Virus record (IMG/VR): IMGVR_UViG_3300026484_000005
Location: 1-40,954 of that record
Direction: 5' to 3' (one strand)
Length of the DNA stretch: 40,954 bases
From: a virus
In this document: one piece after another, positions 3,790-33,523 of the stretch
Layout: each line of letters opens with the position of its first letter
Numbering within the stretch: the first letter of the stretch is position 1
Translations under genes and position numbers: made by a program
Notes under the pieces: model-generated
What the model was told of the DNA's origin: nothing
What the model saw: only the letters and a program-made list of their open reading frames with translations
Database searches by the model: none

Positions 3790-3790
3790 A

Positions 3791-4249: not shown

Positions 4250-4250
4250 T

Positions 4251-6932: not shown

Positions 6933-7590
6933 TGGAGGCTTAGACAGTTCAAGCGCTCTTCATATCTTCAAAGAGGATATTAAGTTAGCAGTTAGTTTTA
7001 ACTATGGTTCTAAGCATAATGCTAGAGAAATTCAAATGGCAAAACTTAACTGTGAAAGGTTAGGTATTGAGCATAAAGTAGTTAACTTAGTAGATGCTTT
7101 TAAGGATATTAAAGGTGCACTACTTAATCCTGATGAAACTATTCCACATGGACACTATGCTGAGTCTAACATGGCCTCAACAGTAGTTCCATTTAGAAAT
7201 GGTATTATGCTAAGTATTGCAGCTGGTATAGCAGAAAGCAATGGTTTAGGCAAAATAATGCTTGCTAGTCATTCTGGAGACCATGCTGTGTATCCTGACT
7301 GTACTCCAGACTTCAACAAAAGTATGTATAAAGCTATTGAGGCTGGTACATCACTAGGTATTGAAGTAGTTATGCCTTTTGAGTCAGTAGACAAGAAGTG
7401 GATTGCTAAAGAAGGTTTAAAGTCAGGTATGGTTCCTTCACAAACATACTCATGCTATGAGGGTAATGAGGTTCATTGTGGAAGGTGTGGAACTTGTGTT
7501 GAAAGACTATGGTCATTAGAAGGCCTTGGGGACAACACAGAATATAAAGATAAAAATTATTACAAAGGAGTTATAGATGGAAGTAACTAG
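6916..7590 (+). CDS. queC: 7-cyano-7-deazaguanine (preQ0) synthase QueC
   Basis: PP-loop 'LLVYSGGLDSS'. C-terminal Zn motif 'CYEG..HCGRCGTCVER'. Confidence 0.92.
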   Translation: MLLVYSGGLDSSSALHIFKEDIKLAVSFNYGSKHNAREIQMAKLNCERLGIEHKVVNLVDAFKDIKGALLNPDETIPHGHYAESNMASTVVPFRNGIMLSIAAGIAESNGLGKIMLASHSGDHAVYPDCTPDFNKSMYKAIEAGTSLGIEVVMPFESVDKKWIAKEGLKSGMVPSQTYSCYEGNEVHCGRCGTCVERLWSLEGLGDNTEYKDKNYYKGVIDGSN

Positions 7591-8146
7591 AGATGAAGCA
7601 ATTGCAGCAATGGAACAGGTAGTAACATACCTAGCTAGAGAGGGTAGAGATGCTCATACAGAAGGTACAGCAGAGAGGTTTATTAAAGGCTGGGACCAAG
7701 ATTGGGGTGAGGGTTATGACATGCCAATTAAATTCACTACTTTTGAGGATGATGGTACTGACCAAATGGTTGTAGAATTAGACATCCCAGTAGTTAGTCA
7801 CTGTTCGCATCACCTTGCACCAATTATGGGTGTATGTCATATTGCTTACTTACCTAAGGATAAAATTGTTGGTTTAAGTAAACTAAACAGAATTGTAGAA
7901 AAGTTTTCAAGACGTCTCCAGGTTCAGGAAAGACTTACAACACAAATAGCACAAGAGTTGCAAGATTTACTTGACCCAAGAGGTGTAGGTGTTCAAATTG
8001 TAGCGGAACATATGTGTGTTAGTTCTAGGGGTGTTAGACACCATGGAGCAAGAACTGTAACTACTAAGCTAACAGGCTTGTTTTTAGAGGATGCAGATGT
8101 TAAAACTGAATTTCTGCAAACTATAAATTCTCATGCAGGAAAATAG
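7577..8146 (+). CDS. folE: GTP cyclohydrolase I (FolE)
   Basis: 'VVSHCSHHLAPIMGVCHIAYLP', 'LSKLNRIVEKFSRRLQVQERLT', 'EHMCVSSRGV'. Confidence 0.92.
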   Translation: MEVTRDEAIAAMEQVVTYLAREGRDAHTEGTAERFIKGWDQDWGEGYDMPIKFTTFEDDGTDQMVVELDIPVVSHCSHHLAPIMGVCHIAYLPKDKIVGLSKLNRIVEKFSRRLQVQERLTTQIAQELQDLLDPRGVGVQIVAEHMCVSSRGVRHHGARTVTTKLTGLFLEDADVKTEFLQTINSHAGK

Positions 8147-8417
8147 TTACATCACTATGGACTTAAAGTCCATAGTGTCATTACTTCATGAGCAACATTA
8201 TACTAATAAAGATATTGGTACTATGCTAGGGGTTACAAAACTTCAGGTTCACTATTATCACAGAGGTAAAACAAAAACACCTAGTGCATTAGTTTGCAAG
8301 GCTATTTATGACAATGTAAGGTTTAATGGTAAGCCTATACTTATTGACTTATACAAAACACCAAAAGAACTGGAGATCCACTATGAACGAGAGCTACAAA
8401 AACTTACTAAAAAGTAA
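8133..8417 (+). CDS. Small helix-turn-helix protein
   Basis: 'NKDIGTMLGVTKLQVHYYHRG' looks like an HTH. Start is uncertain (ATG 8133 overlaps folE; alternative ATG at 8157). Confidence 0.45.
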   Translation: MQENSYITMDLKSIVSLLHEQHYTNKDIGTMLGVTKLQVHYYHRGKTKTPSALVCKAIYDNVRFNGKPILIDLYKTPKELEIHYERELQKLTKK

Positions 8418-9273
8418 ACCTCAAAAAGGTAAAGCTTTTGACCAATTACCTAAAAAGACACTAGAAACATTTGAGGATACTCTTTATGCAGTATCAACTA
8501 AGTTTGATGGGAACCAAATATTTATAACTAAAACAGGTGATAAAATTGAGTTCTTCACTAGTGATTGGAAACAATTTGATATGCCTCTTATAGCAGAGAG
8601 ATACTCTCTGCTACTTAGAGATACTGCTGACTGTATTATAGTCTCTGAGATGAACTATGGGGAAGGCAGGGGAAAACTAGGTGATAGAACTACTGTTCAA
8701 GGAAAGATAACTACTGAAAGAGTTAACTTTAAGAAAGGTCTTGGCTGTTCACTAGATGAGTCTAAAGTTGTTATAAATACATTTGACTTTATTGAAGCAG
8801 ATACAGATAGTCTAACATATGCTCAAAGACATGATAGAGGCTCTACAATAGGTCTATCAATGGTTGACATTAAAGTTATGACTGGTAAACAAGCTGTAGC
8901 TTATGTAAAAGCATTAGTTCATGATGGATGGGAAGGTGGTATGCTTATTGAGCCAGACTCACTGTATCAAGCTGGTAAAAGAGTTAACTATAGTATAAAA
9001 CTAAAGTATCGTAAAACTGCTGATTTACTTTGTGTGGGTACAGAAGAAGGTGAAGGTAAATATGAAGGTATGATTGGTAGTTTAGTTCTACAGGATAAAA
9101 AAGGTAGAATTGTTAAAGTTGGTAGTGGTTTAAGTGATAATTCTAGAGGTGAAGAACCTAGTTATTTTATTGGTAAAGTTATAGAGATTGAGTATGAGCA
9201 AATACTGGATACTTATATTCAACCAACACTTCTAGGTATAAGATTTGATAAAACAAAAGAGGAGACAGATTAA
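8383..9273 (+). CDS. ATP-dependent DNA ligase
   Basis: Adenylation motif I 'STKFDGNQ' (KxDG). 'EGGMLIEP' and 'IKLKYRK' motifs. Start trimmed to ATG 8383, which has GGAG 7 nt upstream, rather than the track start at 8326. Confidence 0.85.
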   Translation: MNESYKNLLKSKPQKGKAFDQLPKKTLETFEDTLYAVSTKFDGNQIFITKTGDKIEFFTSDWKQFDMPLIAERYSLLLRDTADCIIVSEMNYGEGRGKLGDRTTVQGKITTERVNFKKGLGCSLDESKVVINTFDFIEADTDSLTYAQRHDRGSTIGLSMVDIKVMTGKQAVAYVKALVHDGWEGGMLIEPDSLYQAGKRVNYSIKLKYRKTADLLCVGTEEGEGKYEGMIGSLVLQDKKGRIVKVGSGLSDNSRGEEPSYFIGKVIEIEYEQILDTYIQPTLLGIRFDKTKEETD

Positions 9274-9768
9274 ATGGAAGCGTTTATTAGAACTAAGAGG
9301 ATTAATGCAAAACCTATGACTAGGTTAGAGTATAATAAGTTTAGAGGTTGGGAGTTGCCATCAGATGAAAATGGCTCAGATGAAGGTATGCTAGTTGAGT
9401 ATGTAGATGAGGGTAAGCCTAACACAGATGAGTTTAAAGGTTATGTGTCTTGGTCTCCTCTAGATGTGTTTAACAGAGCTTACACACCTATTAGGGGTAT
9501 GACTTTTGGAGAAGCTATTCAAGCAATGAAAGAAGGTCAAAAGGTTTGCAGAGCTGGTTGGAATAGTAAAGGTATGTTTATTTACTATGTTGAAGCTAAT
9601 AAGTATCCAGCTAATGGGAATAAGAAAGGAACAATGGTTGGAGTATTTGAAGATGATATGGTGCCATATCAAGCATATATAGCTATGAAGACAGCCAATA
9701 ATACTGTAGTACCTTGGCTGGCTAGTCAAAGTGATATGTTAGATACCAGTTGGGAGGTAATAGATTAA
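9274..9768 (+). CDS. Two-domain protein: conserved phage N-terminal domain plus C-terminal DUF2829 (Tad2-family) domain
   Basis: C-terminal half 'MTFGEAIQAMKEGQKVCRAGWNSKGMFIYY...AYIAMKTANNTVVPWLASQSDMLDTSWEV' follows the DUF2829 consensus (F-x-E-A...G-x-K-v-x-R-x-G-W ... W-x-A-S-Q-x-D-x-L-x-x-D/S-W). Confidence 0.75.
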   Translation: MEAFIRTKRINAKPMTRLEYNKFRGWELPSDENGSDEGMLVEYVDEGKPNTDEFKGYVSWSPLDVFNRAYTPIRGMTFGEAIQAMKEGQKVCRAGWNSKGMFIYYVEANKYPANGNKKGTMVGVFEDDMVPYQAYIAMKTANNTVVPWLASQSDMLDTSWEVID

Positions 9769-13554: not shown

Positions 13555-14793
13555 ATGAAACCATTTAAACATCAAATGGAAAAGGCAGAACAATGTTGGG
13601 AAATTTTAAAAAACACTGGCTATGTATATTTAGCTGGAAAGCCCAGGTCTGGGAAAACATACACAAGTTTATTAATAGCAGAAAAAAGCGAAAAGATAAA
13701 CAGTGTATTAATTCTAACAAAGAAGGCAGCAATACCAGGCTGGGAGAAGTTTCTGAACAGTGCAACTCTCAAACACAAATATCATGTTACAAACTATGAG
13801 CAAGCTCATAAACTAACTAGTTCTGACTACGACCTAGTTATATTTGATGAGTCACACAATCTAGGAACACTAGGAAAACCAAGTCAAAGAATAAAAACTG
13901 TAAAGAAACTATGTTACAACATGCCACATATACACCTTAGTGGCACTGCAATAGTTGAGTCTCCTAATAGCATATTTCACCAAATGGGTCTGCATTACTA
14001 TACTCCTTTTGAGCACAAAAACTTTTATCACTTTTTTAAAGAGTATGGAGAACCTTACTACATAAAGGCTGCAGGCAGAGAAATACAGCAGTATGATAGA
14101 TATAAACCTGAACTCCTAGAAAAGATTAATGAGTTTACAGTTTATATGACCCAAGAAGATGCTGGGATATCTAAGGATGTGCAAGCTATTGATAAGGTTC
14201 ACTATGTGGAACTAAGGGAGGCTACCAAGGAACTATATAATACTTTACAGAAAGACAATATAGCTAAGGTTTATAAAGAATGTAATATACACAGCGAACC
14301 TAGTATCTGGAATAACTCATCAGAAGTTTACGACCTAGTTTGTGATACAACTATGAAGCTAAGAACTTCCTTACATATGCTAGAGTCTGGCATAGCTAAA
14401 GTGGATGATGAGTATATTGACTTAGGTAATAATGAGAAGATAGACTACATCTATGATACTTTTGGTGATACAGAAGATGTTGGGATTATGTGTCACTTTG
14501 TAGGTGAGAGACAGAAGCTAGAGAGGAGGTTTAAACATGCAACAATATATAGTAGTTCTGCCCATGCTGAGGGAGTTGACCTTAGCCATCTTAAGCACTT
14601 TGTTATTCTTAGTTCTGACTATTCAGGTGCTAAGTTCATTCAAAGACGGGACAGAGTAGTTAATGTAAATGGTAGTAATACCACAGTAGTTAACCACATA
14701 CTTGTAAAGAAAGCTATATCTGAACAAGTGTATAAAAAGGTGAGTAAGAAAGAAGACTTCAACAACTCTACTTATGAGAGAAGAGCTTTATAG
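13555..14793 (+). CDS. SF2 (SNF2/DEAD-like) DNA helicase
   Basis: Walker A 'GKPRSGKT', motif II 'VIFDESHN', motif III 'LSGTA', motif VI 'FIQRRDR'. AAGGAG RBS. Confidence 0.8.
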   Translation: MKPFKHQMEKAEQCWEILKNTGYVYLAGKPRSGKTYTSLLIAEKSEKINSVLILTKKAAIPGWEKFLNSATLKHKYHVTNYEQAHKLTSSDYDLVIFDESHNLGTLGKPSQRIKTVKKLCYNMPHIHLSGTAIVESPNSIFHQMGLHYYTPFEHKNFYHFFKEYGEPYYIKAAGREIQQYDRYKPELLEKINEFTVYMTQEDAGISKDVQAIDKVHYVELREATKELYNTLQKDNIAKVYKECNIHSEPSIWNNSSEVYDLVCDTTMKLRTSLHMLESGIAKVDDEYIDLGNNEKIDYIYDTFGDTEDVGIMCHFVGERQKLERRFKHATIYSSSAHAEGVDLSHLKHFVILSSDYSGAKFIQRRDRVVNVNGSNTTVVNHILVKKAISEQVYKKVSKKEDFNNSTYERRAL

Positions 14794-14800
14794 CTCTTCT
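14779..14800. terminator. 9-bp perfect hairpin at the convergence point of the plus and minus transcription units
   Basis: AGAAGAGCT-TTAT-AGCTCTTCT overlaps the helicase stop codon. There is no clear U-tract on either strand. Confidence 0.35.
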
Positions 14801-14827: not shown

Positions 14828-15397
14828 TTAATTTTCTGTATCCTTTGATAAGTCTATAATAGTCTCATACTTAGGAGCACTATTAACTTGTCTAAGTTTA
14901 ATATAGTCATTATTGTCACCAAATTCTAGTATTTCAAATATACCTGGTTTTATAAGGACTTCTTCTCCCTCTTCAAAATGACTAGAACCCCCAACACTAT
15001 ATTGAGGTATATCTGAATTATCAAATTCTATCAATATTGGCTCATGATTCCTTAGGTAATTATCTTTATCCTTATAATATAGAGCAGTGTCTAAATCATC
15101 TGTTGAAGATACCATATCATTTATCTTAACATAGCTATTCATTCTACCTTCAAATATATTATTATATTGCTCAGTAGGTATTAACTGACCTCTGAAGGTA
15201 TTTTTATCATAGTTTCCTCTTAGCTTAAACATATCTTTGAGTTCTTTAGGTAAATTTTCAGAATGGCCTATAGAATGGTCTACATTGAAATAATTATTTA
15301 ATATTTCTTGTATATTTGGGTTACTATTTAAGTACTCATCTAGATGCTCACCACTTATACTATCTAATGCTGCCTTCAATAATTTATCACATTTCAT
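14828..15397 (-). CDS. ADP-ribosyltransferase-like protein (R-S-E class)
   Basis: Ordered 'TFRGQ' (Arg region), 'MVSSTDDLDTA' (S-T-S-like region) and 'EEGEEVLIKPGIFEI' (E-x-E followed by VL[IL]xPG). ATGA overlap with the upstream virion gene. Confidence 0.55.
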   Translation of the reverse strand: MKCDKLLKAALDSISGEHLDEYLNSNPNIQEILNNYFNVDHSIGHSENLPKELKDMFKLRGNYDKNTFRGQLIPTEQYNNIFEGRMNSYVKINDMVSSTDDLDTALYYKDKDNYLRNHEPILIEFDNSDIPQYSVGGSSHFEEGEEVLIKPGIFEILEFGDNNDYIKLRQVNSAPKYETIIDLSKDTEN

Positions 15398-17790
15398 TTA
15401 CAATCCTTTACCATATCATCTAATTTCATTTTAATAATTTTCTCAGCTTCTTTTGGGTGTAACTTAACACCCTCAGATTTTTCTATATACTTAATTAACT
15501 GCTTAGCTTCATCAGTTATAATATTTTTAACCACTTTTATATTATGATTAGCATCATCTACCTTAAGTTTCTTTCTAGTATTTTTAAGTATACCCTCAAA
15601 TCTATTTTTAGCTACACCTTTAGGAGTGAAGTACTGTTTATGAATATAGTCTACTGTAGCATCAGTGCCTTTCATAGCATCTCTAACCATTTGCCATTGA
15701 GCATCCTGAACTCTTATTTTACCAGCAAGTTCTCTTCTAACAGCACTAGCTTTAGAACCTTCAGGTAAATTATTCATGACCCTAGGTATATCCTCTGAAG
15801 GTATAGTCTTGCCATCTACTATGAAGGTATCACCTGTTGGTGTCTTTTTGCTATAACCCAACTGAATGGGTTTACTAGTGCTTTTCAATGCTTCCTGAGC
15901 ATTTAACTCCTGCAGTTTTGTTATGTAATCAGTACCAATCTCCTCCTTAACTGACTGAGGTAGTTTCTCAAATGTCTTACTAAGGTCAGCAGAACCTGTT
16001 GGAGTTTTAAGTATATCAGCTAAATCATCCATCTTTCTAAGGTGTTTAGCAGTACTGCTATATGGAACATGCTTACGGGCCATGTTAGCTACTTTATTGA
16101 TAATATACACTAAAGCCTTACCCTCAGCAGTAGTTGCAATAGATGCACCTTCATGACCCATACTAGTGTTTAGAAGCCTAGTAGCATCATCAGTTTTAAA
16201 TGTTGTTTTGAATGAGTCAACTATCTCTTGAAGTCTTTTACCTTCAGGTGTAACAAAGCCCTTGTTTCTAAGATTTGAACTTACTGTCTTCCATGATTTG
16301 TTATCACTAAGTGCTGAACTTATAATACTTTTCTCTAAGGACTGTGTTTTATCAGCACCTACAAGTGTAGAAATATTTTCAAAAATATCATCACCTCCTG
16401 ATACTTTACCAATCTTAGCCATAACTTCCTCAGGAGTACTTTTTGGATTACCTTTGTATGATTTACTTCTTGCAGTAGCTATAAGGTCACCAAGTTTTGA
16501 CTCTCTAACTGTAGCCATTTTACTGTAAAGGTCATTAGTTTCTTTCCACAATTTATACTGACTTTCTGTTAAAGTGTTAGCTAATTCAGCATCAACTGCT
16601 TTACCTAATTCTGTCCATTTATGTTTACTTCTGCTTTTACTTTTCCTAATCATGCTATTGATTATAGGCATTGAGTCTACTAAGTCTTTAGAGTTAATTT
16701 GGGGATTATCTGAGCCTATTAAGTTTCTAAGTTCAGCTACATCTCCTGTAGTCGCCTCATCTAATGCTACCCAAGGTTCAGTTTCAAACTCAGCTTTAAC
16801 TGGTACACTACTTAGTGTATCCTTAACCTCTGAATACTTAGTTGCTACATCATCATATGAAGCTTTTAAATCATCTGCAAAATTAACAATATTAAAGTCA
16901 CTAGCAGCTAAATCCTTTACTGCTTTTTGTGTATCCTGAACCCTTTTGTTTAAGTTCATAACTGTTACTGGGTCACTTGAAGTTGATTGCTTAATACTAA
17001 CACCCCTATCCCCTAGCATGTCAACCATAGATTTTATTTTATTCTCAACACTATTTGACTCACCTGTAGCTTGTCTCCACTTAGTAAAGTTAGAATTAAC
17101 TGTAGCTTCATCTAAGTTGTAGTGTTCAAGCATGTAGTTGTATAGTTTGGTAGCTTTAGTTTTGTCTAACTTGTTAATAACAGCTTGAGTACCAGCACCT
17201 AAACCTCCACCTAACAACATAGCTAGGCCAGTATCTACAGCATCTCTATCAGCACCTATACTTGATGTACCAGCAATTCCAGCTTCTCTGGCACCTATAG
17301 CTAGTGCTGATTTACCTACAGATAAACCACCCAAGAGAATATTAGAAGCTATTTCACCTGCTAATGCTGGACCTTCAAGTTCTTTATCTTTAATATATTG
17401 CTCATTATCTGCTATCCATTGGTCCACTTTAGCTGACTGGCTACCTGTAAGTTTATTATAAAACCCTTCACCAAGATAAGCTACACCTAAGGTGGGTCTA
17501 GCTGCACCTCTAGCCATACCTTGTCCAACTTCACCAACTCTTTCAGTAACATTTACATTAAATGCTCCTCCATAAGTCTCTGGTTGACCAGTTGTAATAG
17601 TGCTTACAGTACCATCAGATACTGTAGGTTCTCTAAGTGTAGAATAGTCTGTAACACCAGATAATTCTGGTGCCTGCATTGATTCCATCTTAGATAAAAC
17701 ACTTGGCTCTTCAGGAGCTTCTAACTCATCCCATAGACTAGCTGAAGCTTCCTCAGCTGGAGCATCTAACTCATCCCATAAACTATTCAT
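15394..17790 (-). CDS. Large internal virion / ejection protein (798 aa)
   Basis: Lies next to the portal. Duplicated acidic N-terminal motif 'SLWDEL(D/E)AP'. Gly/Ala-rich hydrophobic segment 'GGLSVGKSALAIG...LLGGGLGAG'. No enzymatic motif recognised. Confidence 0.5.
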   Translation of the reverse strand: MNSLWDELDAPAEEASASLWDELEAPEEPSVLSKMESMQAPELSGVTDYSTLREPTVSDGTVSTITTGQPETYGGAFNVNVTERVGEVGQGMARGAARPTLGVAYLGEGFYNKLTGSQSAKVDQWIADNEQYIKDKELEGPALAGEIASNILLGGLSVGKSALAIGAREAGIAGTSSIGADRDAVDTGLAMLLGGGLGAGTQAVINKLDKTKATKLYNYMLEHYNLDEATVNSNFTKWRQATGESNSVENKIKSMVDMLGDRGVSIKQSTSSDPVTVMNLNKRVQDTQKAVKDLAASDFNIVNFADDLKASYDDVATKYSEVKDTLSSVPVKAEFETEPWVALDEATTGDVAELRNLIGSDNPQINSKDLVDSMPIINSMIRKSKSRSKHKWTELGKAVDAELANTLTESQYKLWKETNDLYSKMATVRESKLGDLIATARSKSYKGNPKSTPEEVMAKIGKVSGGDDIFENISTLVGADKTQSLEKSIISSALSDNKSWKTVSSNLRNKGFVTPEGKRLQEIVDSFKTTFKTDDATRLLNTSMGHEGASIATTAEGKALVYIINKVANMARKHVPYSSTAKHLRKMDDLADILKTPTGSADLSKTFEKLPQSVKEEIGTDYITKLQELNAQEALKSTSKPIQLGYSKKTPTGDTFIVDGKTIPSEDIPRVMNNLPEGSKASAVRRELAGKIRVQDAQWQMVRDAMKGTDATVDYIHKQYFTPKGVAKNRFEGILKNTRKKLKVDDANHNIKVVKNIITDEAKQLIKYIEKSEGVKLHPKEAEKIIKMKLDDMVKDCK

Positions 17791-19616
17791 TACTCACCTC
17801 CTATTTGTGCTCTACCTGGCATATTATTCATAGCTTGACCTTGACTCATTTGCCCAGGAAGCTGACCTTGTTGCATGGCTGCTTGTTGTTGTCCACCTAA
17901 CATCATAGCTGTCTCATCTAAGATACTAGCTAGTTCAGGACTATATTTAGACTTAACATTTTTAATTGATAATGCACCTGCTCTAAAGTATCCTGCTGGA
18001 TTAACCTGACTAAGTATATTACCTAAAGGTCCATTAATAAACTGTTCTAGCAGTTGTTGGTTCTTTTCATCATCATCATTAAAACTAACAGAGTCTATCT
18101 CAATCTCAGCTTTAGTGAATGTTATGTCAGTATCCATAGTTGGAATAGGAGCCATAATTATGTTGCCAAACTCATCTTTAACTGGCTTACCACTAGCTGG
18201 TTCTAGTACCTCTTCAAATACCATACGAGTCTGAGGTAATCCAGTTTGTGAGTCTATATATCCAGTAGGTATCTCTAGAGGTTTATTTAGCTCTATCCAC
18301 TTGTTACCTTGGTAGTTATCTGATACTCTTATAACATCATGAGCAGTATAATACTGTTTAATTAAATTAACTATATCCCAACCTAATAGTCTATAGAATT
18401 GCTCTATCTTAGAAGTACTATATCTTTGTGCAACCATTGAAGCATTTTGCTGTAACTTAACCTTCGCTCCACTATCAGATGCATATGCCATACCTAGGAA
18501 ACTATCATTTATACTAAGTACTCTCTGGACTCTATCTAAGGCCTTGTCAATAACAGTATATTGGTCAAGAACTTCTCTTGTTAAACTTTCAATCCTAATT
18601 CCAGCTAACTTTTTAACTGGTATAATAGCATTTACTCTGTTAAATTGGTCAGTAAAATCTGCTAAGTTGTCTACTGCATTGTCTTCTACAAAAGCTTTCT
18701 GTGTATTAACCATTAACTGAATTTTAATAAGTGCTTGGTTAATAGCATTTTGAGTTTCTGTAACTTCTCTAAACATACCATAAAATTCTACTTTATTTGA
18801 AGTGTTGAGCTTCTGGACTCTATAAGGATTTTTTACATCCTTATAAGTAACCTCTTCCTTGCTTAAAATAGTGTCACCACTCCAATAAACTGACCAAGTC
18901 TTGTCACCATCTTTCATAATAGTATGAACTATTAAATAGTTATCAAACCTTTTATATTGACCCTGGAACTCTGTACCATAAGTGTAAGCAAACTCTGCTT
19001 CATCAATATTTAAGTGGTTGTAGTAAGAGCCTAGTTTCTCTCTTTTTCTTTTACCAAATAAGCTATCTACCTCTTCCTCAGCTACCCATTTAAACCTATG
19101 AATGTATCTAGCATCTGAGTAGTCATCTAATCTACTCATTGGGTCAAGAGCTATTTCAAGTGAAGGTACATGATTAATTTTAATCTCATACTTAGGTCTT
19201 CCAAACTCATCTGTTTCCTCAGTTTTAACTACATCAGTATAACTACACATTAAACCAGTTAGTATACAGTCTAACTTAATTTTGTCACCTTCAAGTGCAA
19301 AGTTATTAGTTCTAAAGATGTAGTCAGTAGTGTCTTGAAGTACTGAAGCAGTAATAATACTTTCCTCTTTAGCTGGGTTAATTTTAACATTATTAACTAT
19401 TGTTGAGTAGTAGCCTAATAGCATTCTACCAAATAACTTAATAATATTAAAAGTCTCAGCAGGTTGACCCCTTAGGGCTAGTGTGTTTAGCTGGTCTGTA
19501 GTATAGTGCCTATTGTGGTAAAAGTCTAGTACTTTGAGAGCCTCCTTACGAGACTTTTCAAAAGCATCATAGCTAATCTTGAATGTATCTTTAAGATTTT
19601 CTATTGTTGGTTTCAT
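17790..19616 (-). CDS. Portal protein
   Basis: N-terminal 'FYHNRHYTTDQLNTLALRGQPAETFNIIKLFGRMLLGY' matches the portal pattern (Y..G.q....l..l...grp...N.i...v). Size is 608 aa with a Q-rich C-terminal tail. Confidence 0.75.
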   Translation of the reverse strand: MKPTIENLKDTFKISYDAFEKSRKEALKVLDFYHNRHYTTDQLNTLALRGQPAETFNIIKLFGRMLLGYYSTIVNNVKINPAKEESIITASVLQDTTDYIFRTNNFALEGDKIKLDCILTGLMCSYTDVVKTEETDEFGRPKYEIKINHVPSLEIALDPMSRLDDYSDARYIHRFKWVAEEEVDSLFGKRKREKLGSYYNHLNIDEAEFAYTYGTEFQGQYKRFDNYLIVHTIMKDGDKTWSVYWSGDTILSKEEVTYKDVKNPYRVQKLNTSNKVEFYGMFREVTETQNAINQALIKIQLMVNTQKAFVEDNAVDNLADFTDQFNRVNAIIPVKKLAGIRIESLTREVLDQYTVIDKALDRVQRVLSINDSFLGMAYASDSGAKVKLQQNASMVAQRYSTSKIEQFYRLLGWDIVNLIKQYYTAHDVIRVSDNYQGNKWIELNKPLEIPTGYIDSQTGLPQTRMVFEEVLEPASGKPVKDEFGNIIMAPIPTMDTDITFTKAEIEIDSVSFNDDDEKNQQLLEQFINGPLGNILSQVNPAGYFRAGALSIKNVKSKYSPELASILDETAMMLGGQQQAAMQQGQLPGQMSQGQAMNNMPGRAQIGGE

Positions 19617-21214: not shown

Positions 21215-21892
21215 TTATTGTAATAAAGCTTTGGTAACACCACCAACAACTTTACCTGTTAAGTTACCCATAGAACCAATATTAGCAGTACCTAGCTGAC
21301 CTGCTAAATCTGCTTGTTGTCCAGCTATACTAGCTTGAGTACTTATACCTGTTTGAGCTACTGAAGCTTGTGTCCCTAACATCTGAGTACCTTGGCCTAA
21401 ACCTAAGCCTAAGAAATTTAATCTACTCTGTTCAGCTATAGAGTCTTGAGATGCTCTAATATTAGCTTTTTGTGATGCTTCTTGACCATATAGTTGTGTA
21501 AGTCCTGCTGCCTCTATACCACTACCAGATATACCTCTTTGAGCTAATGCTTGAGATAACTGCTTTTGTGCAGTTTGGTACTCTTGAGAAGTTTGACCTA
21601 ATTGTTGTGCCACTATATCCTCTCCGGTATATCTTGCTATATAGTCAGCCTCCTGCTCCTGTATAGAGCCATAAATATCTTTCCAGTCATTATACTGGTC
21701 TTGTTGAAACTTTAACTGGTCCTCATACATCTTCATACTGGCATCTGAAGCTTCTTTGGATGCTTTAGCTGCAGCTTCTTGACCCTGAAAATTTGTAACT
21801 CCTATAGCATCAGTAGCAGTATGAAGACCAGACTCTACTGACCTTCCTACAGTGTCTAATAATTGACTACCACCACTTTCTATCTTTCCCAT
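21215..21892 (-). CDS. Gln/Gly/Ala-rich internal virion protein (225 aa)
   Basis: Low-complexity 'GQ..AQ..GI' repeats typical of podophage internal/ejection proteins. Assigned by position in the late operon. Confidence 0.45.
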   Translation of the reverse strand: MGKIESGGSQLLDTVGRSVESGLHTATDAIGVTNFQGQEAAAKASKEASDASMKMYEDQLKFQQDQYNDWKDIYGSIQEQEADYIARYTGEDIVAQQLGQTSQEYQTAQKQLSQALAQRGISGSGIEAAGLTQLYGQEASQKANIRASQDSIAEQSRLNFLGLGLGQGTQMLGTQASVAQTGISTQASIAGQQADLAGQLGTANIGSMGNLTGKVVGGVTKALLQ

Positions 21893-22302
21893 TATATCTC
21901 CTTATAATATTTAATCTCTATTGGAACTGCACCATAGCTATTGAACATTTTACCTGATTGCTTAGTAACACTATTAGCAATCCAACCTGAATAACCTAGT
22001 GATTTAATGTATCTTTCTGTCTCTTGCAAAAACTTTTTAACATAGTATCTATGTTTAGTGTCTACATACATAGAACTAAAGTTAACTACTACCTTGTTAG
22101 AACCTTCACCAAGAATAAAGCCTACTAAATTATCTTCCTTATACAGACCAAGAGCTATTGAGTTACTTTGAAGAAGCTCCTTATTAAGTAATCTTGCAGA
22201 TACAAAGTTACTATGCTTTGTAGGTAGAACTTCTTGGTAATCTTGATATAACTCTAATAGCCTATTATAGTCTTTGTCATCTATAATTTTAATTTTTATC
22301 AT
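21892..22302 (-). CDS. Hypothetical protein, possible GNAT-fold acetyltransferase
   Basis: Size and pattern 'NLVGFILGEG...MYVDTKHRYYVKKFLQETERYIKSLGY' resemble the GNAT beta4-alpha3 region. The Q/R-x-x-G-x-G/A motif is not canonical. Confidence 0.3.
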   Translation of the reverse strand: MIKIKIIDDKDYNRLLELYQDYQEVLPTKHSNFVSARLLNKELLQSNSIALGLYKEDNLVGFILGEGSNKVVVNFSSMYVDTKHRYYVKKFLQETERYIKSLGYSGWIANSVTKQSGKMFNSYGAVPIEIKYYKEI

Positions 22303-22336: not shown

Positions 22337-22657
22337 TTAATTATAGATAATTTTAGACTTTCTTAATGCAACTAGAATTTCATCTACCTTATCACTAATG
22401 GCTTGAACCTCTTCCTGTGTAGGAGGGTCACTAATGGTTTGGTCTAATGAGTCTATGAAATCTTGCTTAGGATTATCAGTAGCTAATGAAGGTAAGTCCT
22501 TCTTAGCTACAAAGCCATTATCCAAGTATCCAGTGTTGCTAAAAGCTACATCAATCTGTTGAATTAACTGACTTAAGAACCTCCTAAGTTGTTGAGGGTT
22601 TTCAACATCTTGAGGAACTTGTATAAATGTACTACCCTCACTTTTCTTACCTACCAT
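22337..22657 (-). CDS. Hypothetical virion-module protein (106 aa)
   Basis: Overlaps the upstream tail gene by 11 nt. No motif recognised. Confidence 0.45.
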   Translation of the reverse strand: MVGKKSEGSTFIQVPQDVENPQQLRRFLSQLIQQIDVAFSNTGYLDNGFVAKKDLPSLATDNPKQDFIDSLDQTISDPPTQEEVQAISDKVDEILVALRKSKIIYN

Positions 22658-24869
22658 TTGTTTGCCTTTCTAGTGGAACCATTTCCACATCATATAGTTT
22701 ACCTGTACCAGAGTACTCTATACTTATATAATAAGCTCTACTAATTGATGAAGGTAAAAGTATTTCCTTAGTCTCCAACTCAGCACTACTTAAAGACTTA
22801 TTAAGCACTTCAGTATTATCAAGATATATTTTTATGTCTATTGAGCCTGTATAACATAACATAAGATTTTTAAACATTTTATGATTAGTTATATTAAATG
22901 GTATTGTACCACTCTTATAACCATCTACTGTTTTATTGAACTCAATGGGTTGGTTATTTACCTTAACTATTTCTTTAAACTCTGTAGTTGAGTAAAACTT
23001 CAATGCTCCAGCGATGTTACTTTTATTATAAGAATCGAAAGTTATATCATAAACCTTTCCTGTCCCTATAACTTCAAAAACTAAAGAATAACCAGTTAAG
23101 TCTTGGAACTCAATAATCTCTTCAACTAAAGATGTACTACTTAAAACCTTAGAATACATTACTCCATCAAGGTATACTCTAAACTCTACTGAACCATTAA
23201 ATTTAACTCTTAAGTTATCAAACAAACTTAAATTTGTAGGTTCTATATTAATGTTACCACTCTTATAACCATCTACTGTTTTATTGAACTCAATGGGTTG
23301 GTTATTTACCTTAACTATTTCTTTAAACTCTGTAGTTGAGTAAAACTTCAATGCTCCAGCGATGTTATCTTTATCTAAAGTTCTATAATCTACAAAGAAT
23401 ACCTCACCAGTACCTGTAACAGTAAACTCTAAGTTATACCCAATATATTCTTCAACCTCCAGAATTTCAACAGTAGTTCTAGTTGTAGAACTTAATGACT
23501 TAGTAACTACAGTGGTTCCATCTATGATAACACTAATTGTAATACTACCTATATACTCTACTTTAAAATTGTAGTATAAGCTTTTATAATTAGGTTTATC
23601 TAATATTAGGGGACTTTTATAGCTCATAGACATAGTATTAGGGCTAGTAAACAAGCTATATAAACTACCATTTAGTGAATAGTATAGAGTATCGTTATGT
23701 ATTGAAAATCTATCTATTGTTTGAGATACCTCCCTTAGTATATTTCCAAATCTAGTATCAAGAGCTAATATCTTATCTTCATAAGCTAAGTAGTATACAT
23801 CATCAAATACTATAGAGTCTTTAATATTTGTAATTTCAATCTTACCAAGTTTATCTCTACTAGCAACCTGTATAATACCTCCATCAGATGCACATATACC
23901 ATCTGTTGATGCCCATATTAAAGTATCCTTTGCAAAACTAATAGAGCTATGGCTCAAGCATCCTTGGTTTGAACTTAATAAGTATTTAGACAAAGTCATT
24001 GGGCTTGTACCAGTAACTATATGAGTTTTATACTTAGTAAACACTAATAGACCATTAGCTGTTGCACCAATACCAGTAATATCATTATCAAACTTAATAT
24101 AATTAAAAGCACTCCAGTACTCTGTAAAAGCAATATCACTAAAGTATAATTTATTGTCTATACTACCAAAAAGCATTGCATTACTTTCAGTTAAATAGTT
24201 TAGTCCAGTTGGCGCTGGTGCATTATTATAGCTATCTAAAACACCAAGTATATAATCATCTGGTATACTAGAATTTACATCCTTAGTATTACCCTCACCA
24301 GGATTGTCAGTTTCAAAAGCTAGTGACATTGATGTAAGATTTCCACCAATTCTATAAACTCTAAGCTTATCTATACCAGGTTGACCAGTACCAACTAAGT
24401 TTTTTGTAAGTATAGCTGAGTCTATAGCTGTAATAAAACTACTATAATCGCTAGGTTGACTTTCTAGTCCAGTGGAAGAGTTATAATATGTATAACAAAA
24501 TTGATAGGAGCCATGATAATTTCCAGTATCACCTAATGCTACAGTTGGAGCACTAGGTGGTCTATCTACACCAAGAGTTAACCAGTTAGTCCCATCAGAC
24601 GTCCACATAGGCCTAGAAGAACCATCACTATAGTATAAATTATCCTGAAATATAACATAGTCTTTATAAGTGCTTGAGCTTACCCAAGAGTCTCTAAAAT
24701 TTATAAAGTAGGTTCCTATAATAGTATTTTCATTTGTGCTAGATTTTACAGGTCGTAGAGACATACTAGAGTTATCTACATTAGTATACTCAACTGCCTC
24801 ATTTGCATTTATTAAATGAGGAGATAAACGAATGTTTATCCCTCCATTAAATTGAGTTAATTGTGCCAT
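22647..24869 (-). CDS. Tail protein with a beta-rich N-terminal domain and three tandem C-terminal modules
   Basis: Three repeats share the pattern '..Y.GSI.I.V..DG..V..KSLSS......EI......GY.L.F.V.GTG.V'. They are separated by a 37-aa linker that occurs twice, identically. Confidence 0.6.
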   Translation of the reverse strand: MAQLTQFNGGINIRLSPHLINANEAVEYTNVDNSSMSLRPVKSSTNENTIIGTYFINFRDSWVSSSTYKDYVIFQDNLYYSDGSSRPMWTSDGTNWLTLGVDRPPSAPTVALGDTGNYHGSYQFCYTYYNSSTGLESQPSDYSSFITAIDSAILTKNLVGTGQPGIDKLRVYRIGGNLTSMSLAFETDNPGEGNTKDVNSSIPDDYILGVLDSYNNAPAPTGLNYLTESNAMLFGSIDNKLYFSDIAFTEYWSAFNYIKFDNDITGIGATANGLLVFTKYKTHIVTGTSPMTLSKYLLSSNQGCLSHSSISFAKDTLIWASTDGICASDGGIIQVASRDKLGKIEITNIKDSIVFDDVYYLAYEDKILALDTRFGNILREVSQTIDRFSIHNDTLYYSLNGSLYSLFTSPNTMSMSYKSPLILDKPNYKSLYYNFKVEYIGSITISVIIDGTTVVTKSLSSTTRTTVEILEVEEYIGYNLEFTVTGTGEVFFVDYRTLDKDNIAGALKFYSTTEFKEIVKVNNQPIEFNKTVDGYKSGNINIEPTNLSLFDNLRVKFNGSVEFRVYLDGVMYSKVLSSTSLVEEIIEFQDLTGYSLVFEVIGTGKVYDITFDSYNKSNIAGALKFYSTTEFKEIVKVNNQPIEFNKTVDGYKSGTIPFNITNHKMFKNLMLCYTGSIDIKIYLDNTEVLNKSLSSAELETKEILLPSSISRAYYISIEYSGTGKLYDVEMVPLERQTNGR
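22907..23019. repeat. 113-bp perfect direct repeat, copy 1 (inside the tail gene)
   Basis: Identical to 23255-23367 at an offset of 348 bp (116 codons). Encodes 'NIAGALKFYSTTEFKEIVKVNNQPIEFNKTVDGYKSG'. Confidence 0.95.
23255..23367. repeat. 113-bp perfect direct repeat, copy 2 (inside the tail gene)
   Basis: Identical to 22907-23019. Confidence 0.95.
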
Positions 24870-32003: not shown

Positions 32004-32025
32004 AAAACAGGCTTAGTTTAAGCTT
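32001..32025 (-). terminator. Weak hairpin plus U-tract overlapping the terL stop codon
   Basis: Minus-strand AAGCUUA-AAC-UAAGCCU (7 bp including one G-U pair) followed by GUUUUUG. Confidence 0.3.
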
Positions 32026-33523
32026 AAATGTCATAACCTAATGATTTTCTTTTAACTTGTTTAGTCTCTCTTACATAAATATCACTTATAGGACTTGATA
32101 GAAGACCCATAGCTATGTACCTTATCATGTCAGCGGTGTGAGAATACTCATCATGAAGAGGAGAGTCTAGATACACTGATAAAGATCTATCAAATTTCTT
32201 TCTATAATTTTGTATTGCACCTACTATAGCTTCACACTTATTAGATATAACTACTGTTTTTAGAAAGCGTCTTGTAGCCTCAATACCATCAAGTAGTCTA
32301 TGCTTCTGAACTAGGACTGGATTGAAGCCCATCTCAACCATAGCATCCCATCTTGTCTGAGCAGCTATAAGTTCTTTTACTGCTACATCATGAGGTACAT
32401 AGGTTACACCAAAGACCCAACCACGTTCCTTACTTAATGCTTTATATATGTCTCTGTAAAAAGCTAGTCCTTGTCCATTATTGTGGTATTCTCCAATTAT
32501 TTTTACTGTTCCATCTGGATGCTGTTGGAAGAAACCTATTGAGAAGGTATCATTCATACCTAAGTCCATTGCAGAGTGAACTAAGAGGTTTGGATCATAA
32601 AGTTCCTGCTCTTGGATGTTCAAAGTCTTATACTCATTAAGGTAATATGTACCCTCTACTGGTACATCAAATGCTGCCTTAGGACTGTATGGATACTCCT
32701 GGTCAAACTTACCACCTAATCTGGATCTTTTTGCTGCTGCCCAGTTCTTTTGCTCTTGGGTTAGAACTATATCTAGGTCTTTCTCTACTTTAGTAAAGTA
32801 CAGCCTATCCTCTTTAGTAGCTTCATAGTACTCTGCCATACTACAGTCAGGGTCATCTGTCCAACTAAGGAAAATAGGATAAAAGTCTAGTGGTGTAAGA
32901 CCTTCCTCACCTACAAGTTTTAGTCTTAACTCTGCTCTCTGCCACATTTCATAGAACAAACCTCCCTTACCTTCTGCTGTTGACTCTATACTTATTGAGG
33001 AGTTAGTACTTACTGCCTCAAATGCACCAGTGTTTAACTCCTCAGCCTTTTCTGGAAACTTTTTAGCTATTTTAGCTAACTCTGATACATGTAAACTAGA
33101 CAATGTATCACCACGGAAGTTACCTATCTTAAGTGTTGAACCATTATTAAACTTAAAACCCTCACTATTAGCTACAACTAACTTTATACCTAAGGACTTT
33201 TTTATTGTAGGGTCAAAGTGCTCCCACATAAATAGTGCCTTAGCATATAGTTTCTTTGACTCACTCAGACCATAACTCTGGATACCATTCTGTGAGTTAG
33301 CCTCAAATATACAGCGGTCCAAACCCTCTGCTACTTTGTATGTAGAAATCCCCTGCTGTCTAGACTTCAGTGTTATAGTCTTAGGATGCTTAACCTTAAA
33401 TAGAACTGTTTGAGCATAGTTCATTTTAAGTATACCCACATTGTCTTCTTTATCAACTATTGTGTATAAGTTATCAAGCCTCCAATGCTTATTAGCTAGA
33501 AATACTGCAAGTTGCTTAAGCAT
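32024..33523 (-). CDS. terL: Terminase large subunit
   Basis: Walker A-like 'LKSRQQGISTY'. C-terminal nuclease region 'HDEYSHTADMIRY'. 499 aa, at the head of the late operon. Confidence 0.85.
   Translation of the reverse strand: MLKQLAVFLANKHWRLDNLYTIVDKEDNVGILKMNYAQTVLFKVKHPKTITLKSRQQGISTYKVAEGLDRCIFEANSQNGIQSYGLSESKKLYAKALFMWEHFDPTIKKSLGIKLVVANSEGFKFNNGSTLKIGNFRGDTLSSLHVSELAKIAKKFPEKAEELNTGAFEAVSTNSSISIESTAEGKGGLFYEMWQRAELRLKLVGEEGLTPLDFYPIFLSWTDDPDCSMAEYYEATKEDRLYFTKVEKDLDIVLTQEQKNWAAAKRSRLGGKFDQEYPYSPKAAFDVPVEGTYYLNEYKTLNIQEQELYDPNLLVHSAMDLGMNDTFSIGFFQQHPDGTVKIIGEYHNNGQGLAFYRDIYKALSKERGWVFGVTYVPHDVAVKELIAAQTRWDAMVEMGFNPVLVQKHRLLDGIEATRRFLKTVVISNKCEAIVGAIQNYRKKFDRSLSVYLDSPLHDEYSHTADMIRYIAMGLLSSPISDIYVRETKQVKRKSLGYDI

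Follow-up and report, generated by a model that had tools for sequence, protein, structure and literature searches.

A predicted, divergent R-S-E-clade ADP-ribosyltransferase-fold protein encoded in an exchangeable cargo slot behind the post-portal gene of a podovirus

The cargo gene and its neighborhood

The window analyzed here is the whole 40,954-nt stretch of DNA of the IMG/VR virus record IMGVR_UViG_3300026484_000005. It carries a 189-aa open reading frame (ORF), which an initial annotation made from the sequence had described as an ADP-ribosyltransferase (ART)-like gene forming the last cistron of the virion operon. The position was confirmed, as this ORF closes the structural block on the minus strand and faces a convergent helicase gene, which ends at position 14793 (Table 1). 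The translational coupling to a 798-aa ORF and the adjoining portal gene, both part of the same description, were also found: the start codon of the ART gene overlaps the TGA stop codon of the 798-aa ORF as ATGA, an AAGGA Shine-Dalgarno-like sequence is located 6 nt upstream of the start, and the product of the next gene upstream was identified as a portal protein through PF16510.

Table 1. Positions of the cargo gene, its motifs and its neighbors within the window.
Feature	Position	Strand	Basis
189-aa ORF, predicted divergent R-S-E-clade ART-fold protein; accessory 'cargo' gene	14828..15397	minus	ATG start, homologues, profile, fold
Leader MKCDKLLKAALDSIS, residues 1-15, common to unrelated slot proteins of sister phages	15353..15397	minus	Motif scan
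F68-R69-G70, on strand beta-1 of the model; R69 is the predicted NAD-binding residue of the R-S-E triad	15188..15196	minus	Alignment
S97-S98-T99, equivalent of the S-T-S motif	15101..15109	minus	Alignment
E142-E143-G144-E145-E146, end of the ARTT loop; E146 at the catalytic-Glu position	14960..14974	minus	Alignment
Junction: AAGGA Shine-Dalgarno-like sequence, 6-nt spacer, ATGA stop/start overlap	15394..15408	minus	Sequence
798-aa post-portal protein, probable P22 gp16-like ejection protein	15394..17790	minus	Synteny, moderate profile match, published KF-1 gp37 assignment
Portal protein, P22-type, immediately upstream of the 798-aa gene	17790..19616	minus	PF16510, E 1.3e-75; phrog_156, E 5e-84
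Perfect 9-bp inverted repeat AGAAGAGCT TTAT AGCTCTTCT between the ART and helicase genes	14779..14800		
Convergent helicase gene, which delimits the far side of the slot in all relatives	13555..14793	plus	phrog_62, E 1.3e-43

The chance of finding 189 open codons at this base composition is approximately 8e-9. Among the 37 ORFs examined, all with 100 aa or more (mean GC content 0.350, sd 0.027), the ART ORF had the lowest value (0.288). Neither a promoter of its own nor an intrinsic terminator was detected above background for this gene (terminator scan). The inverted repeat that separates it from the helicase gene was left uncalled by the scan because it is not followed by a T-run; lying between convergent genes, it possibly acts as a shared transcription stop.

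The 798-aa protein had been labeled an internal virion protein. No direct family match was obtained for this ORF, Pfam giving nothing at E ≤ 0.001. A MuF domain (PF04233) was not detected, nor was anything MuF-like present among the weak Pfam matches listed at E ≤ 1. Searches of the PDB with the 798-aa family yielded nothing significant, and neither megablast nor tblastn found a match to the protein in 50,697 phage genomes. The family was nonetheless related to gp37 of Edwardsiella phage KF-1 (hhalign E 2.5e-5, probability 75%), which has been assigned as P22 gp16-like (PMC4819975). Direct comparisons with P22 gp16 were not significant, either for the 798-aa family profile or, by BLASTP, for KF-1 gp37. 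The reading of the 798-aa protein as a probable P22 gp16-like ejection protein is two inferential steps away from the sequence, being based on synteny, the moderate profile match to KF-1 gp37 and the published assignment of the latter; the earlier label was not confirmed by any direct family match.

Two features of the 798-aa protein stood out: a Gly/Ala-rich hydrophobic stretch at approximately residues 140–205, and a C-terminal region of about 110 aa that forms a conserved 'handle' preceding the cargo slot. KF-1 gp37, whose length of 969 aa is near the sum of 798 and 189, was considered as a protein hiding a C-terminal ART domain, and none was found. That a conserved frameshift joins the ART to the 798-aa protein was also discarded, as the frame offset differs among relatives. 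The effector and post-portal ORFs were separate cistrons in all seven cargo-bearing backbone types examined.

Assignment to the R-S-E clade of ADP-ribosyltransferases

The three motif strings on which the ART-like reading had been founded are present in the 189-aa ORF in the order described: TFRGQ (R69), VSSTDD (S97-S98-T99) and FEEGEEVLIKPGIF (E142-F154). Searched alone, the protein had no match in Pfam (E ≤ 10), PHROGs or the sequences of the PDB, and megablast and tblastn against the 50,697 phage genomes were also negative for it. A k-mer-indexed homologue search recovered only the ART itself, and the profile version of this search added one sequence. An exhaustive phmmer search against 1.84 billion representative proteins revealed five distant homologues, with E-values from 1e-8 to 3e-4. 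When a profile was built from these five homologues without the query, the query scored 72 bits, and none of 2000 shuffled versions of its sequence exceeded 9.1 bits. A pattern scan of IMG/VR, JGI metagenome contigs and GTDB genomes gave no confirmed further relatives of the ART. The subfamily comprises eight known members, has no Pfam or PHROG assignment and forms six clusters among the 1.84 billion representatives; the analysis defines it as a predicted, previously unannotated ART subfamily.

A family profile was then composed of six sequences, i.e., the query and its five homologues. Against the PDB, it matched the Vibrio splendidus ART toxin Vis (4xzj) with an E-value of 4.8e-12 over the regions of the Arg, the S-T-S and the Glu. 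ExoT was also matched (E 1.1e-4), and XopAI, ExoS and a Tre1-type PAAR toxin (6dre/6drh) were matched weakly (E 0.025–0.05). The Pfam family ADPrib_exo_Tox was hit by two of the homologues, both below the gathering threshold, the best one (P0002) with 23.0 bits vs. a cutoff of 23.4. For neither of the Pfam ART families PF03496 and PF01129 did the query itself reach the curated cutoff, and family membership is therefore based on the profile-to-PDB match and the fold, and not on a Pfam score.

Structure prediction from the single sequence with AlphaFold gave an unusable model (pLDDT 45). The AF2 model computed on the 6-sequence alignment reached a pLDDT of 67.7 and a pTM of 0.64, with values of about 64–87 per ten-residue block in the core. 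With this model, all 50 PDB matches listed by Foldseek were R-S-E-clade ARTs, 27 of them at E ≤ 0.001. The best was again Vis (E 4.6e-7, TM 0.55, approximately 16–17% identity in the fold alignment); TM-scores to ARTs were only 0.4–0.55, with a model of moderate quality. Matches in BFVD included Alt, ModA, fusions of ARTs to MuF or 'head morphogenesis' proteins and portal–ART fusions.

Individual motif positions were compared with those of Vis, the roles of the alpha-lobe and ART residues being taken from PMC6628389. R69 is invariant in the eight family members and aligns with YRGT of Vis. S97 is invariant in the 6-member alignment, S97-S98-T99 aligns with STS of Vis, and E146-V147-L148 is invariant in the eight members, with the Glu placed directly before a hydrophobic strand. 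The alpha-lobe residues Y36 and N38 are retained as well. Remote homology searching and structure prediction, which had been proposed for checking the ART-like reading, both bear it out: the profile led to Vis at E 4.8e-12, only R-S-E-clade ARTs appeared among the listed folds, and R69, the S-T-S position and E146-V147-L148 are kept in the homologues. We thus assign the product of the gene, on profile and model evidence, to the R-S-E clade as a divergent protein with a predicted ART fold.

The 'E-x-E' reading of the Glu region needed correction. The triplet E143-G144-E145 is one residue out of register; E146 occupies the catalytic position, and the residue at position −2 is G144 in the 189-aa protein vs. 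Glu in all seven relatives. This substitution suggests an acceptor specificity unlike that of the arginine-directed relatives, or else a bias towards NAD-glycohydrolase activity. A G-x-E active site is unusual and could mark a new acceptor specificity.

With Vis and C3/VIP2/ExoS-like R-S-E mono-ARTs, the 189-aa protein would share a single domain of about 200 aa, an N-terminal alpha-lobe, the YRG and S-T-S motifs and a Glu before V-L. Whereas Vis possesses a secretion signal and a canonical E-x-E (PMC6628389), the 189-aa protein lacks a signal peptide and shows G-x-E in register. It also differs from Vis in that it is encoded by a phage, within a virion operon, and starts with a leader that it has in common with non-ART proteins.

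An exchangeable slot and a shared leader

The arrangement around the ART gene recurred in related loci. One of them (L001) repeats the order portal, ~790-aa protein, ART and convergent helicase, and in three more (L002, L003 and L005) the post-portal 3′ end, the ART and the convergent helicase recur. The stop/start overlap of the post-portal gene and the ART was kept in every relative with an ART, and relatives show the same junction as this phage. Helicase identity was 74–84% in L003 and L002 and 39% in L005, and the ART was only about 30% identical. In other loci, the content of the slot differed: it was empty in L010 and L016, held two tandem ARTs in L015, and in L011 and L012 contained 322-, 441- and 247-aa proteins without detectable ART similarity. 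Homologues of the 322- and 441-aa proteins occupied the slot of L022, the portal of which is 81% identical to that of this phage. The ART gene therefore occupies a swappable slot, as seen from the presence, absence and exchange of its cargo.

Relic copies of the post-portal 3′ end and junction were found upstream of the second cassettes in L015 and L011; a scan of IMG/VR with the junction DNA pattern re-found L015 and nothing else. The 646-aa protein of L022 matches the 798-aa protein only over residues 689–798, i.e., in the handle, with 56% identity. The possibility that the 322/259-aa family is a cryptic ART was discarded, as profile–profile comparison aligned the leader only and neither Pfam nor PDB matches were obtained. 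The analysis defines the 322/259 and 441 proteins as two further cargo families, both of them possible new phage effectors.

Kafunavirus-like podoviruses (Edwardsiella phage KF-1, Vibrio phage VPMS1, Pseudoalteromonas phage PH1 and Dickeya phage Amaethon) are the closest cultivated relatives, with portals of 49–55% identity, and have the same order of DNA-ejection gene, ~560-aa gene, portal and large post-portal gene. In these phages, however, the post-portal protein has about 960–970 aa, its gene precedes a ~60-aa ORF and tail or lysis genes, and ART, leader motif and cargo slot are all absent.

All slot proteins but one, the 247-aa product of the last gene of one slot, start with a leader of about 15 residues, MxC[SDN][KPQ]LLKxAL. 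This leader is common to the ART, '322/259' and '441' families, between which nothing else aligns. The pattern C[SDNT][KPQR][LVI][LMFYI][KAQR]xA[LIVFYM] occurred exclusively at the N-termini of slot genes when 342,312 six-frame residues were scanned, a set consisting of the loci available before L022. The latter was retrieved later with a DNA pattern derived from the leader and adds two more leader-bearing genes; the leader of its non-ART cargo is identical to that of the 189-aa ART in 13 of 15 residues. As judged from these sequences, the leader tracks the phage backbone and not the type of cargo, and synonymous codon variation within it indicates that conservation acts at the protein level.

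A function of the leader as a signal peptide, or as a lipoprotein signal through Cys3, was rejected, since it is charged and amphipathic rather than hydrophobic. Cys3 of the leader and a Cys near the C-terminus of the handle, Cys797 in the 798-aa protein, always co-occur, and the two might be linked to each other within the particle. On the other hand, conservation of the leader and junction could mainly reflect use as a recombination handle or as a translation-initiation region, and not as a targeting signal.

Proposed role, known systems and alternative readings

The position in the slot and the shared leader suggest a protein that is carried by the virion and injected from it. The account that we consider somewhat more probable than its negation is that of an accessory R-S-E mono-ADP-ribosyltransferase which is made late, loaded into the virion by means of its leader, injected, and engaged in NAD+-dependent modification of the host; its activity, its packaging and injection, and the docking role of the leader are what we infer. 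The ART would be produced late by translational coupling to the post-portal gene, and its amphipathic leader MKCDKLLKAALDSIS would direct it into the assembling particle, where its most likely docking site would be the conserved handle formed by the last ~110 residues of the post-portal protein. It would then enter the next host cell together with the ejection proteins and DNA, and modify a host macromolecule, with NAD+ as substrate, at the very onset of infection. The idea of a packaged effector, already raised in the initial annotation, is strengthened by the coupling in every ART-bearing relative, by the leader on unrelated proteins and by the fused counterpart in Pf-WMP4 described below. 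No phage RNA polymerase was found among the large ORFs scanned, so that the phage probably depends on the RNA polymerase of its host. If injected, the protein would represent a first-minute host-takeover or anti-defense enzyme in a phage group without characterized effectors.

More tentatively, and as a reading somewhat less likely than not, we propose that the leader, perhaps with the Gly-rich tail of the relatives, is a portable signal for virion loading and ejection in a group of podoviruses with a P22-type portal, docking any protein encoded downstream onto the conserved C-terminus of the gp16-like protein. The slot would then be a plug-and-play effector cassette site for ARTs and at least two other families, exchanged by recombination at the handle and leader, and would parallel, in podoviruses, the capsid targeting sequence (CTS)/internal-protein system of T4. 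The occurrence of the leader on unrelated cargo points to a simple transferable signal for loading podovirus particles; such a signal would account for the diversification of the proteins that these phages inject. The leader could also be put to use for delivering proteins of choice along with the phage DNA, as the capsid targeting sequence of T4 has been.

In T4, Alt is an ART that is made late, packaged and injected with the DNA (PMC9503650). The internal proteins of T-even phages are diverse and have only the capsid targeting sequence in common (PMC3012670), and they resemble the slot proteins in carrying a short N-terminal sequence on unrelated cargo, here with a presumed targeting role. 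The 189-aa protein is similar to Alt/ModA homologues at the level of the predicted fold, without a detectable sequence relationship to Alt. Unlike T4, this phage is a podovirus with a P22-type portal, and its cargo is coupled to a probable ejection-protein gene and not to the scaffold core. No prohead protease was recognized among the structural ORFs scanned, a set to which several small ORFs did not belong, and cleavage of the leader is therefore not expected.

The concept of a virion-associated ART is less new than had been implied: ARTs located next to portal or terminase genes are an already described theme and have been predicted to be packaged in the head (PMC9503650). Further, domains bound for the host cytoplasm are contained in internal virion proteins of podoviruses (PMC4819975). 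ORF32 of Pf-WMP4, which is located at the IVP-D position, carries a C-terminal ADPrib_exo_Tox domain at residues 1250–1396 (38.3 bits vs. the cutoff of 23.4). MuF-toxin, polyvalent and IVP-D fusions of this kind resemble the present locus in that an effector ART is placed C-terminally, behind an internal or portal-proximal virion protein, and their effector modules differ between related phages (PMC5576092; PMC9503650; PMC4819975). Here, in contrast, the ART is a separate, coupled cistron with a partner devoid of a detectable MuF domain, and the common element is a short N-terminal leader on each cargo, plus the C-terminal tail in relatives.

An active ART that stays out of the particle, made late and acting inside the infected cell like T4 ModA/ModB, appears fairly unlikely to us. 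In that case, the operon end would be a permissive site for accessory genes, and the enzyme might act on host transcription or translation, block defenses or superinfecting phages, or modify progeny DNA or virion proteins. An unpackaged enzyme would share the ART fold and motifs, and the gene is accessory, being absent from close relatives, with the lowest GC content of the ORFs examined; accessory genes such as sieA also follow gene 16 in P22. The phage carries DNA modification genes, and DNA-modifying enzymes exist among R-S-E ARTs. However, the ART gene lacks its own promoter and terminator, the stop/start overlap is kept in every relative, and a backbone-matched leader, conserved at the protein level on unrelated cargo, would be hard to explain for free cytoplasmic enzymes. 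The existence of fused ART–virion-protein architectures elsewhere also speaks against this reading.

It is unlikely, too, that the 189-aa protein is a catalytically attenuated or decaying member, either restricted to NAD+ glycohydrolase activity or an inactive remnant, retained by chance or because it serves in structure or docking. It is the sole ART of the eight without the hydrophobic, Gly-rich C-terminal tail (…IMSLTGGxILL…), a tail that recurs in looser form at the C-termini of the 322/259- and 441-type slot proteins. The 189-aa protein further lacks 7 residues of the alpha-lobe ahead of the alpha-3 motif and has 3 additional aa in front of S-T-S. Together with G144 at a position that is Glu in all relatives, the lost tail and the 7-residue deletion mean that the protein is possibly an attenuated member; the low GC content and the persistence of this phage type with an empty slot would fit such decay. 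Other ExE toxins require the first Glu for transfer to arginine, but hydrolyze NAD without it. Against decay, the 189 codons have remained intact in very AT-rich DNA, coupling and the Shine-Dalgarno-like sequence are intact, and R69, S97, E146, Y36 and N38 are all retained. As regards G144, it is flanked by E143 and E145, and the length of the ARTT loop varies by 1–2 residues among relatives; it is possible that E143 or E145 functionally replaces the first Glu.

That the three motifs resemble those of ARTs by chance in a protein of another fold is very improbable: the query alone lacked Pfam, PHROG and PDB sequence matches and its single-sequence AF2 model was poor, but it has significant homology to a family matching Vis over all three motif regions, the 50 PDB fold matches listed were all ARTs, and the motif residues are invariant.

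Position and family of the 189-aa protein

The 189-aa ORF that the initial annotation had interpreted as an ADP-ribosyltransferase (ART)-like gene begins with ATG, both in the ORF listing and in the raw sequence, and the chance probability of 189 open codons at its base composition is ~8e-9. Its start codon shares an ATGA with the TGA that ends the 798-aa ORF (the post-portal gene), and an AAGGA Shine-Dalgarno-like element is found 6 nt upstream. The post-portal gene is directly preceded by the gene for a portal of P22 type (PF16510, E 1.3e-75; phrog_156, E 5e-84); the coupling and the closeness to the portal described earlier are both seen in the sequence. The minus-strand structural block proceeds from the large terminase via the major capsid protein and tail genes to a gp7-like 'DNA ejection' protein and then the portal, and is convergent with a helicase gene ending at 14793. 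The inverted repeat at this junction has no T-run and may end transcription of both convergent operons, one from each side.

Features of the window and of related loci
Feature	Positions	Strand	Remarks
GTP cyclohydrolase-like ORFs (two)	3791-4249 and 7577-8146	+	
QueD-, QueE- and QueC-like ORFs	within 3791-8146	+	
237-aa ORF	6219-6932	+	unassigned; mid-cluster, among 7-deazaguanine genes
Inverted repeat	14779-14800		perfect 9 bp, 4-nt loop; spans helicase stop codon, 27 nt beyond ART stop
189-aa ORF (window ART)	14828..15397	-	last gene of structural block
798-aa ORF (post-portal gene)	15394..17790	-	
136-aa acetyltransferase-like ORF	21892-22302	-	phrog_1249, E 8e-6
'Internal virion protein' match	22647-24869	-	phrog_511, E 1.3e-74
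Large terminase	32024..33523	-	start of structural block
L022 post-portal gene	1963-3903		646 aa
L011 247-aa ORF	8334-9077		end of L011/L012 slot
Pf-WMP4 ORF32 (L021, NC_008367)	5061-9440		1459 aa

Taken alone, the 189-aa protein gave no match in Pfam, PHROGs, PDB sequences, a k-mer-indexed protein database or GenBank phages. With phmmer, an exhaustive comparison with 1.84 billion cluster representatives recovered five distant homologues (227-314 aa; E 1e-8 to 3e-4), and two further family members came to light afterwards as a tandem pair in L015, the closest relative among the contigs. Homology to this family is secure, since the query scored 72 bits against a profile built without it, compared with 9.1 bits for the best of 2000 query shuffles. 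A six-sequence profile matched Vis, an ART toxin of Vibrio splendidus of known crystal structure, at E 4.8e-12 over the Arg, S-T-S and Glu regions, and more weakly ExoT (E 1.1e-4) and XopAI, ExoS and a Tre1-type PAAR toxin (6dre/6drh; E 0.025-0.05). Two of the homologues, P0002 and P0006, reached 23.0 and 17.7 bits with Pfam ADPrib_exo_Tox, below the gathering threshold of 23.4.

AlphaFold2 with the six-sequence alignment returned a moderate model (mean pLDDT 67.7, pTM 0.64), with averages of about 64-87 over ten-residue blocks within the core, residues 61-170. Among the PDB matches listed by Foldseek, 50/50 were R-S-E-clade ARTs, including Vis, C3bot, Tre1, Certhrax, CDTa, XopAI, C3larvin, ART2.2 and SdeC. 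In a viral structure library the model matched Alt and ModA homologues, as well as fusion proteins in which an ART domain is joined to a 'head morphogenesis', 'minor capsid' or 'portal' protein. Membership in the ART fold and family is therefore well supported, by the profile homology, the Vis match and the predicted structure, which supports the ART interpretation of the initial annotation.

Active site and divergence of the window ART

The three motif strings read initially are present (F68-R69-G70, S97-S98-T99 and E142-E143-G144-E145-E146-V-L-I-K-P-G). R69 and E146-V147-L148 are the same in 8/8 family members; the six-member alignment shows no substitution of S97, and an S/T-rich triplet of S-T-S type occupies that position throughout the family. 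The alpha-lobe motif residues Y36 and N38 are also retained (for the roles of such residues, see PMC6628389). The observation was real in all but the register of its E-x-E: in the clade the catalytic Glu stands directly before [VI]-L and the first Glu/Gln two residues earlier, a position occupied by Glu in 7/7 relatives but by Gly144 in the window ART. Since E143 and E145 flank Gly144 and the ARTT loop differs in length by 1-2 residues among relatives, compensation by these neighbours is possible.

Further, all other ARTs of the family have a hydrophobic, Gly-rich C-terminal tail (…IMSLTGGxILL…) that the window ART lacks; its alpha-lobe carries a 7-residue deletion, and its GC (0.288) is the lowest among the 37 ORFs of >=100 aa examined (mean 0.350, sd 0.027). 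Together these traits mark it as the most derived member. Altered acceptor specificity, a bias towards NADase activity and attenuation are each possible and computationally indistinguishable.

A cargo slot with a shared leader

Contigs carrying ART homologues and contigs carrying homologues of the 798-aa protein were compared at the slot, the region between the post-portal and the convergent helicase genes. L001 has the complete order portal, ~790-aa protein, ART and convergent helicase; the 3' end of the post-portal gene, ART and helicase recur in L002, L003 and L005, and the stop/start overlap is present in all four. In L003 and L002 the helicase retains 74-84% identity against only about 30% for the ART, which is thus evolving much faster than the genes beside it. 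In L015, with a portal 79% and a post-portal protein 58% identical to those of the window, the slot holds two tandem ART paralogues (205 and 239 aa). It is empty in L010 and L016 (about 41 kb each, same phage type), where an 800-aa gene abuts the helicase. In L011, L012, L013, L014 and L019 it holds a 322-aa protein, followed in the long-enough contigs (L011, L012) by 441- and 247-aa proteins; these three had no Pfam or PDB match and no ART similarity by profile comparison. The 247-aa ORF, without a leader or a family match, overlaps the 441-aa gene by 20 nt. L022, whose portal is 81% identical, carries homologues of the 322- and 441-aa proteins behind a different post-portal protein, which has only the C-terminal ~110 residues (56% identity) in common with that of the window. 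This comparison indicates that the post-portal protein is itself mosaic.

All slot proteins except the 247-aa one share an N-terminal leader of ~15 residues. In the ART P0002 its core lies three residues further in (MSVNNCDKLYQEAF), and P0006, an ART from a different gene context, is without it.

N-termini of slot proteins
Protein	Type	N-terminus
Window ORF	ART	MKCDKLLKAALDSISG
L015 gene a	ART	MKCSKLLKEALEGI
L015 gene b	ART	MKCSKLMKEALERY
P0004	ART	MYCSKLLKDAVGGL
P0003	ART	MECNKLFAEAYQHY
P0005	ART	MVCSQVMKDALDDV
L011 322-aa	non-ART	MACNPLLKKAIEDL
L011 441-aa	non-ART	MACNPLLKEAIEGI
L022 259-aa	non-ART	MKCNKLLKEALELK
L022 partial	non-ART	MKCNKLLKEALDSIG

In 342,312 six-frame residues of the loci preceding L022, including the cultivated podovirus relatives Edwardsiella phage KF-1 and VPMS1, matches to a regular expression for the leader core fell at slot-protein N-termini and nowhere else; L022, retrieved by a leader-derived DNA pattern, adds two more. 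Similarity between cargo families is limited to the first 12-28 residues. At leader codons the variation is synonymous (Leu TTA/CTA/TTG, Ala GCA/GCT, Cys TGT/TGC), which places the conservation at the level of the protein. The leader follows the phage backbone rather than the cargo type: that of the non-ART cargo in L022 is identical to that of the window ART at 13/15 positions.

In L015 and L011, the second cassette is preceded by intergenic DNA that is a relic copy of the post-portal 3' end (…K-D-C-E-stop and …E-E-C-K-stop), so cassettes travel or are duplicated along with this handle, the conserved C-terminal region of the post-portal protein. Post-portal C-termini read K[DE]CK or E[EQ]C[ND]GM before cargo and KETK in the two cargo-less contigs. 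The Cys, which lies two to four residues before the end of the protein (window 15394-15405 and relatives), always co-occurs with leader Cys3, a correlation confounded by the Shine-Dalgarno-like sequence encoded in the same codons.

The C-terminus of each ART relative is a short hydrophobic tail, rich in Gly, Ala and Leu, that follows a Lys and leads into a charged end (e.g. KNIMSLTGGAILLDK, ISLLSAAILLPLANK). This tail was seen at slot-protein C-termini in L001, L002, L003, L005, L006, L011, L015 and L022, with looser versions in the 322/259- and 441-type proteins, and is absent at window positions 14828-14920. It might be a second shared module that makes membrane or Gly-zipper contacts, works as a loading peptide or provides a 3' recombination arm.

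Probable ejection neighbourhood and proposed role

The 798-aa protein had no direct family or PDB match. Its family profile aligned with KF-1 gp37 (YP_006990467; 969 aa, same position; hhalign E 2.5e-5, probability 75%, 381 columns), which Hardies et al. place in the IVP-D column with similarity to the P22 gp16 ejection protein and not to T7 IVP-D (PMC4819975). Compared directly, the protein and P22 gp16 showed no significant match, so the case for a gp16-like identity is indirect, though plausible. Upstream of the ~530-aa pre-portal gene lies a match to the P22 gp7-type 'DNA ejection' family (phrog_21132, E 5e-27), which fits an ejection-protein neighbourhood. The 798-aa N-terminus (17700-17790, minus strand) carries an acidic motif in tandem, SLWDEL[DE]AP.EE twice; L015 (5869-5970) and L010 (6001-6110) have NINDL.P.DY.VV twice, unlike in sequence and the same in arrangement. 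The acetyltransferase-like ORF, within the structural operon just before the gp7-like gene, may be another enzyme of the virion or ejection module. KF-1 gp42, placed equally to the window's 'internal virion protein' match, has that annotation in GenBank; since Hardies et al. (Table 2) class gp42 as tubular tail B (PMC4819975), the label is probably misleading.

ARTs placed at the end of an ejection-protein gene in podoviruses are of a kind already known. A survey of phage ARTs encoded beside portal or terminase genes, or joined to MuF or portal domains, predicted that they are packaged in the head as first-line effectors (PMC9503650). The experimental model is T4 Alt, and the diverse T-even internal proteins have only a capsid targeting sequence in common (PMC3012670); podoviral internal virion proteins variably host cytoplasm-destined domains (PMC4819975). 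ORF32 of the Phormidium podovirus Pf-WMP4, at the IVP-D position and publicly annotated as 'ParB-like partition nuclease', has a missed C-terminal ADPrib_exo_Tox domain (PF03496, residues 1250-1396; 38.3 bits, cutoff 23.4). There the ART is fused, whereas in the window it is a separate, translationally coupled cistron. This arrangement is new, as are the very small, previously unannotated ART subfamily, the G-x-E active-site variant and, above all, the shared leader and handle defining an exchangeable cargo slot; the interest lies mainly in this architecture and less in the ART itself.

We propose that the ART would be made late, coupled to the ejection-protein gene, loaded into particles via the leader, injected with ejection proteins and DNA, and would then ADP-ribosylate a host target, a chain that we consider somewhat probable as a whole. 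The packaged effector analogous to T4 Alt envisaged in the initial annotation is strengthened as an idea, and packaging itself is putative. Since the ORFs scanned yielded no phage RNA polymerase, host RNAP is, by analogy only, a reasonable candidate target. A non-packaged ART acting late appears rather unlikely. An attenuated, NADase-only or decaying copy, for which Gly144 and the lost tail speak and against which the retained R69 and E146 stand, is judged unlikely. Chance resemblance to ARTs is highly improbable given the profile score and the Vis match.

Elsewhere in the window, the preQ0/queuosine-type synthesis gene cluster at 3791-8146 (plus strand) suggests 7-deazaguanine modification of the phage DNA; the same genes occur in L010.
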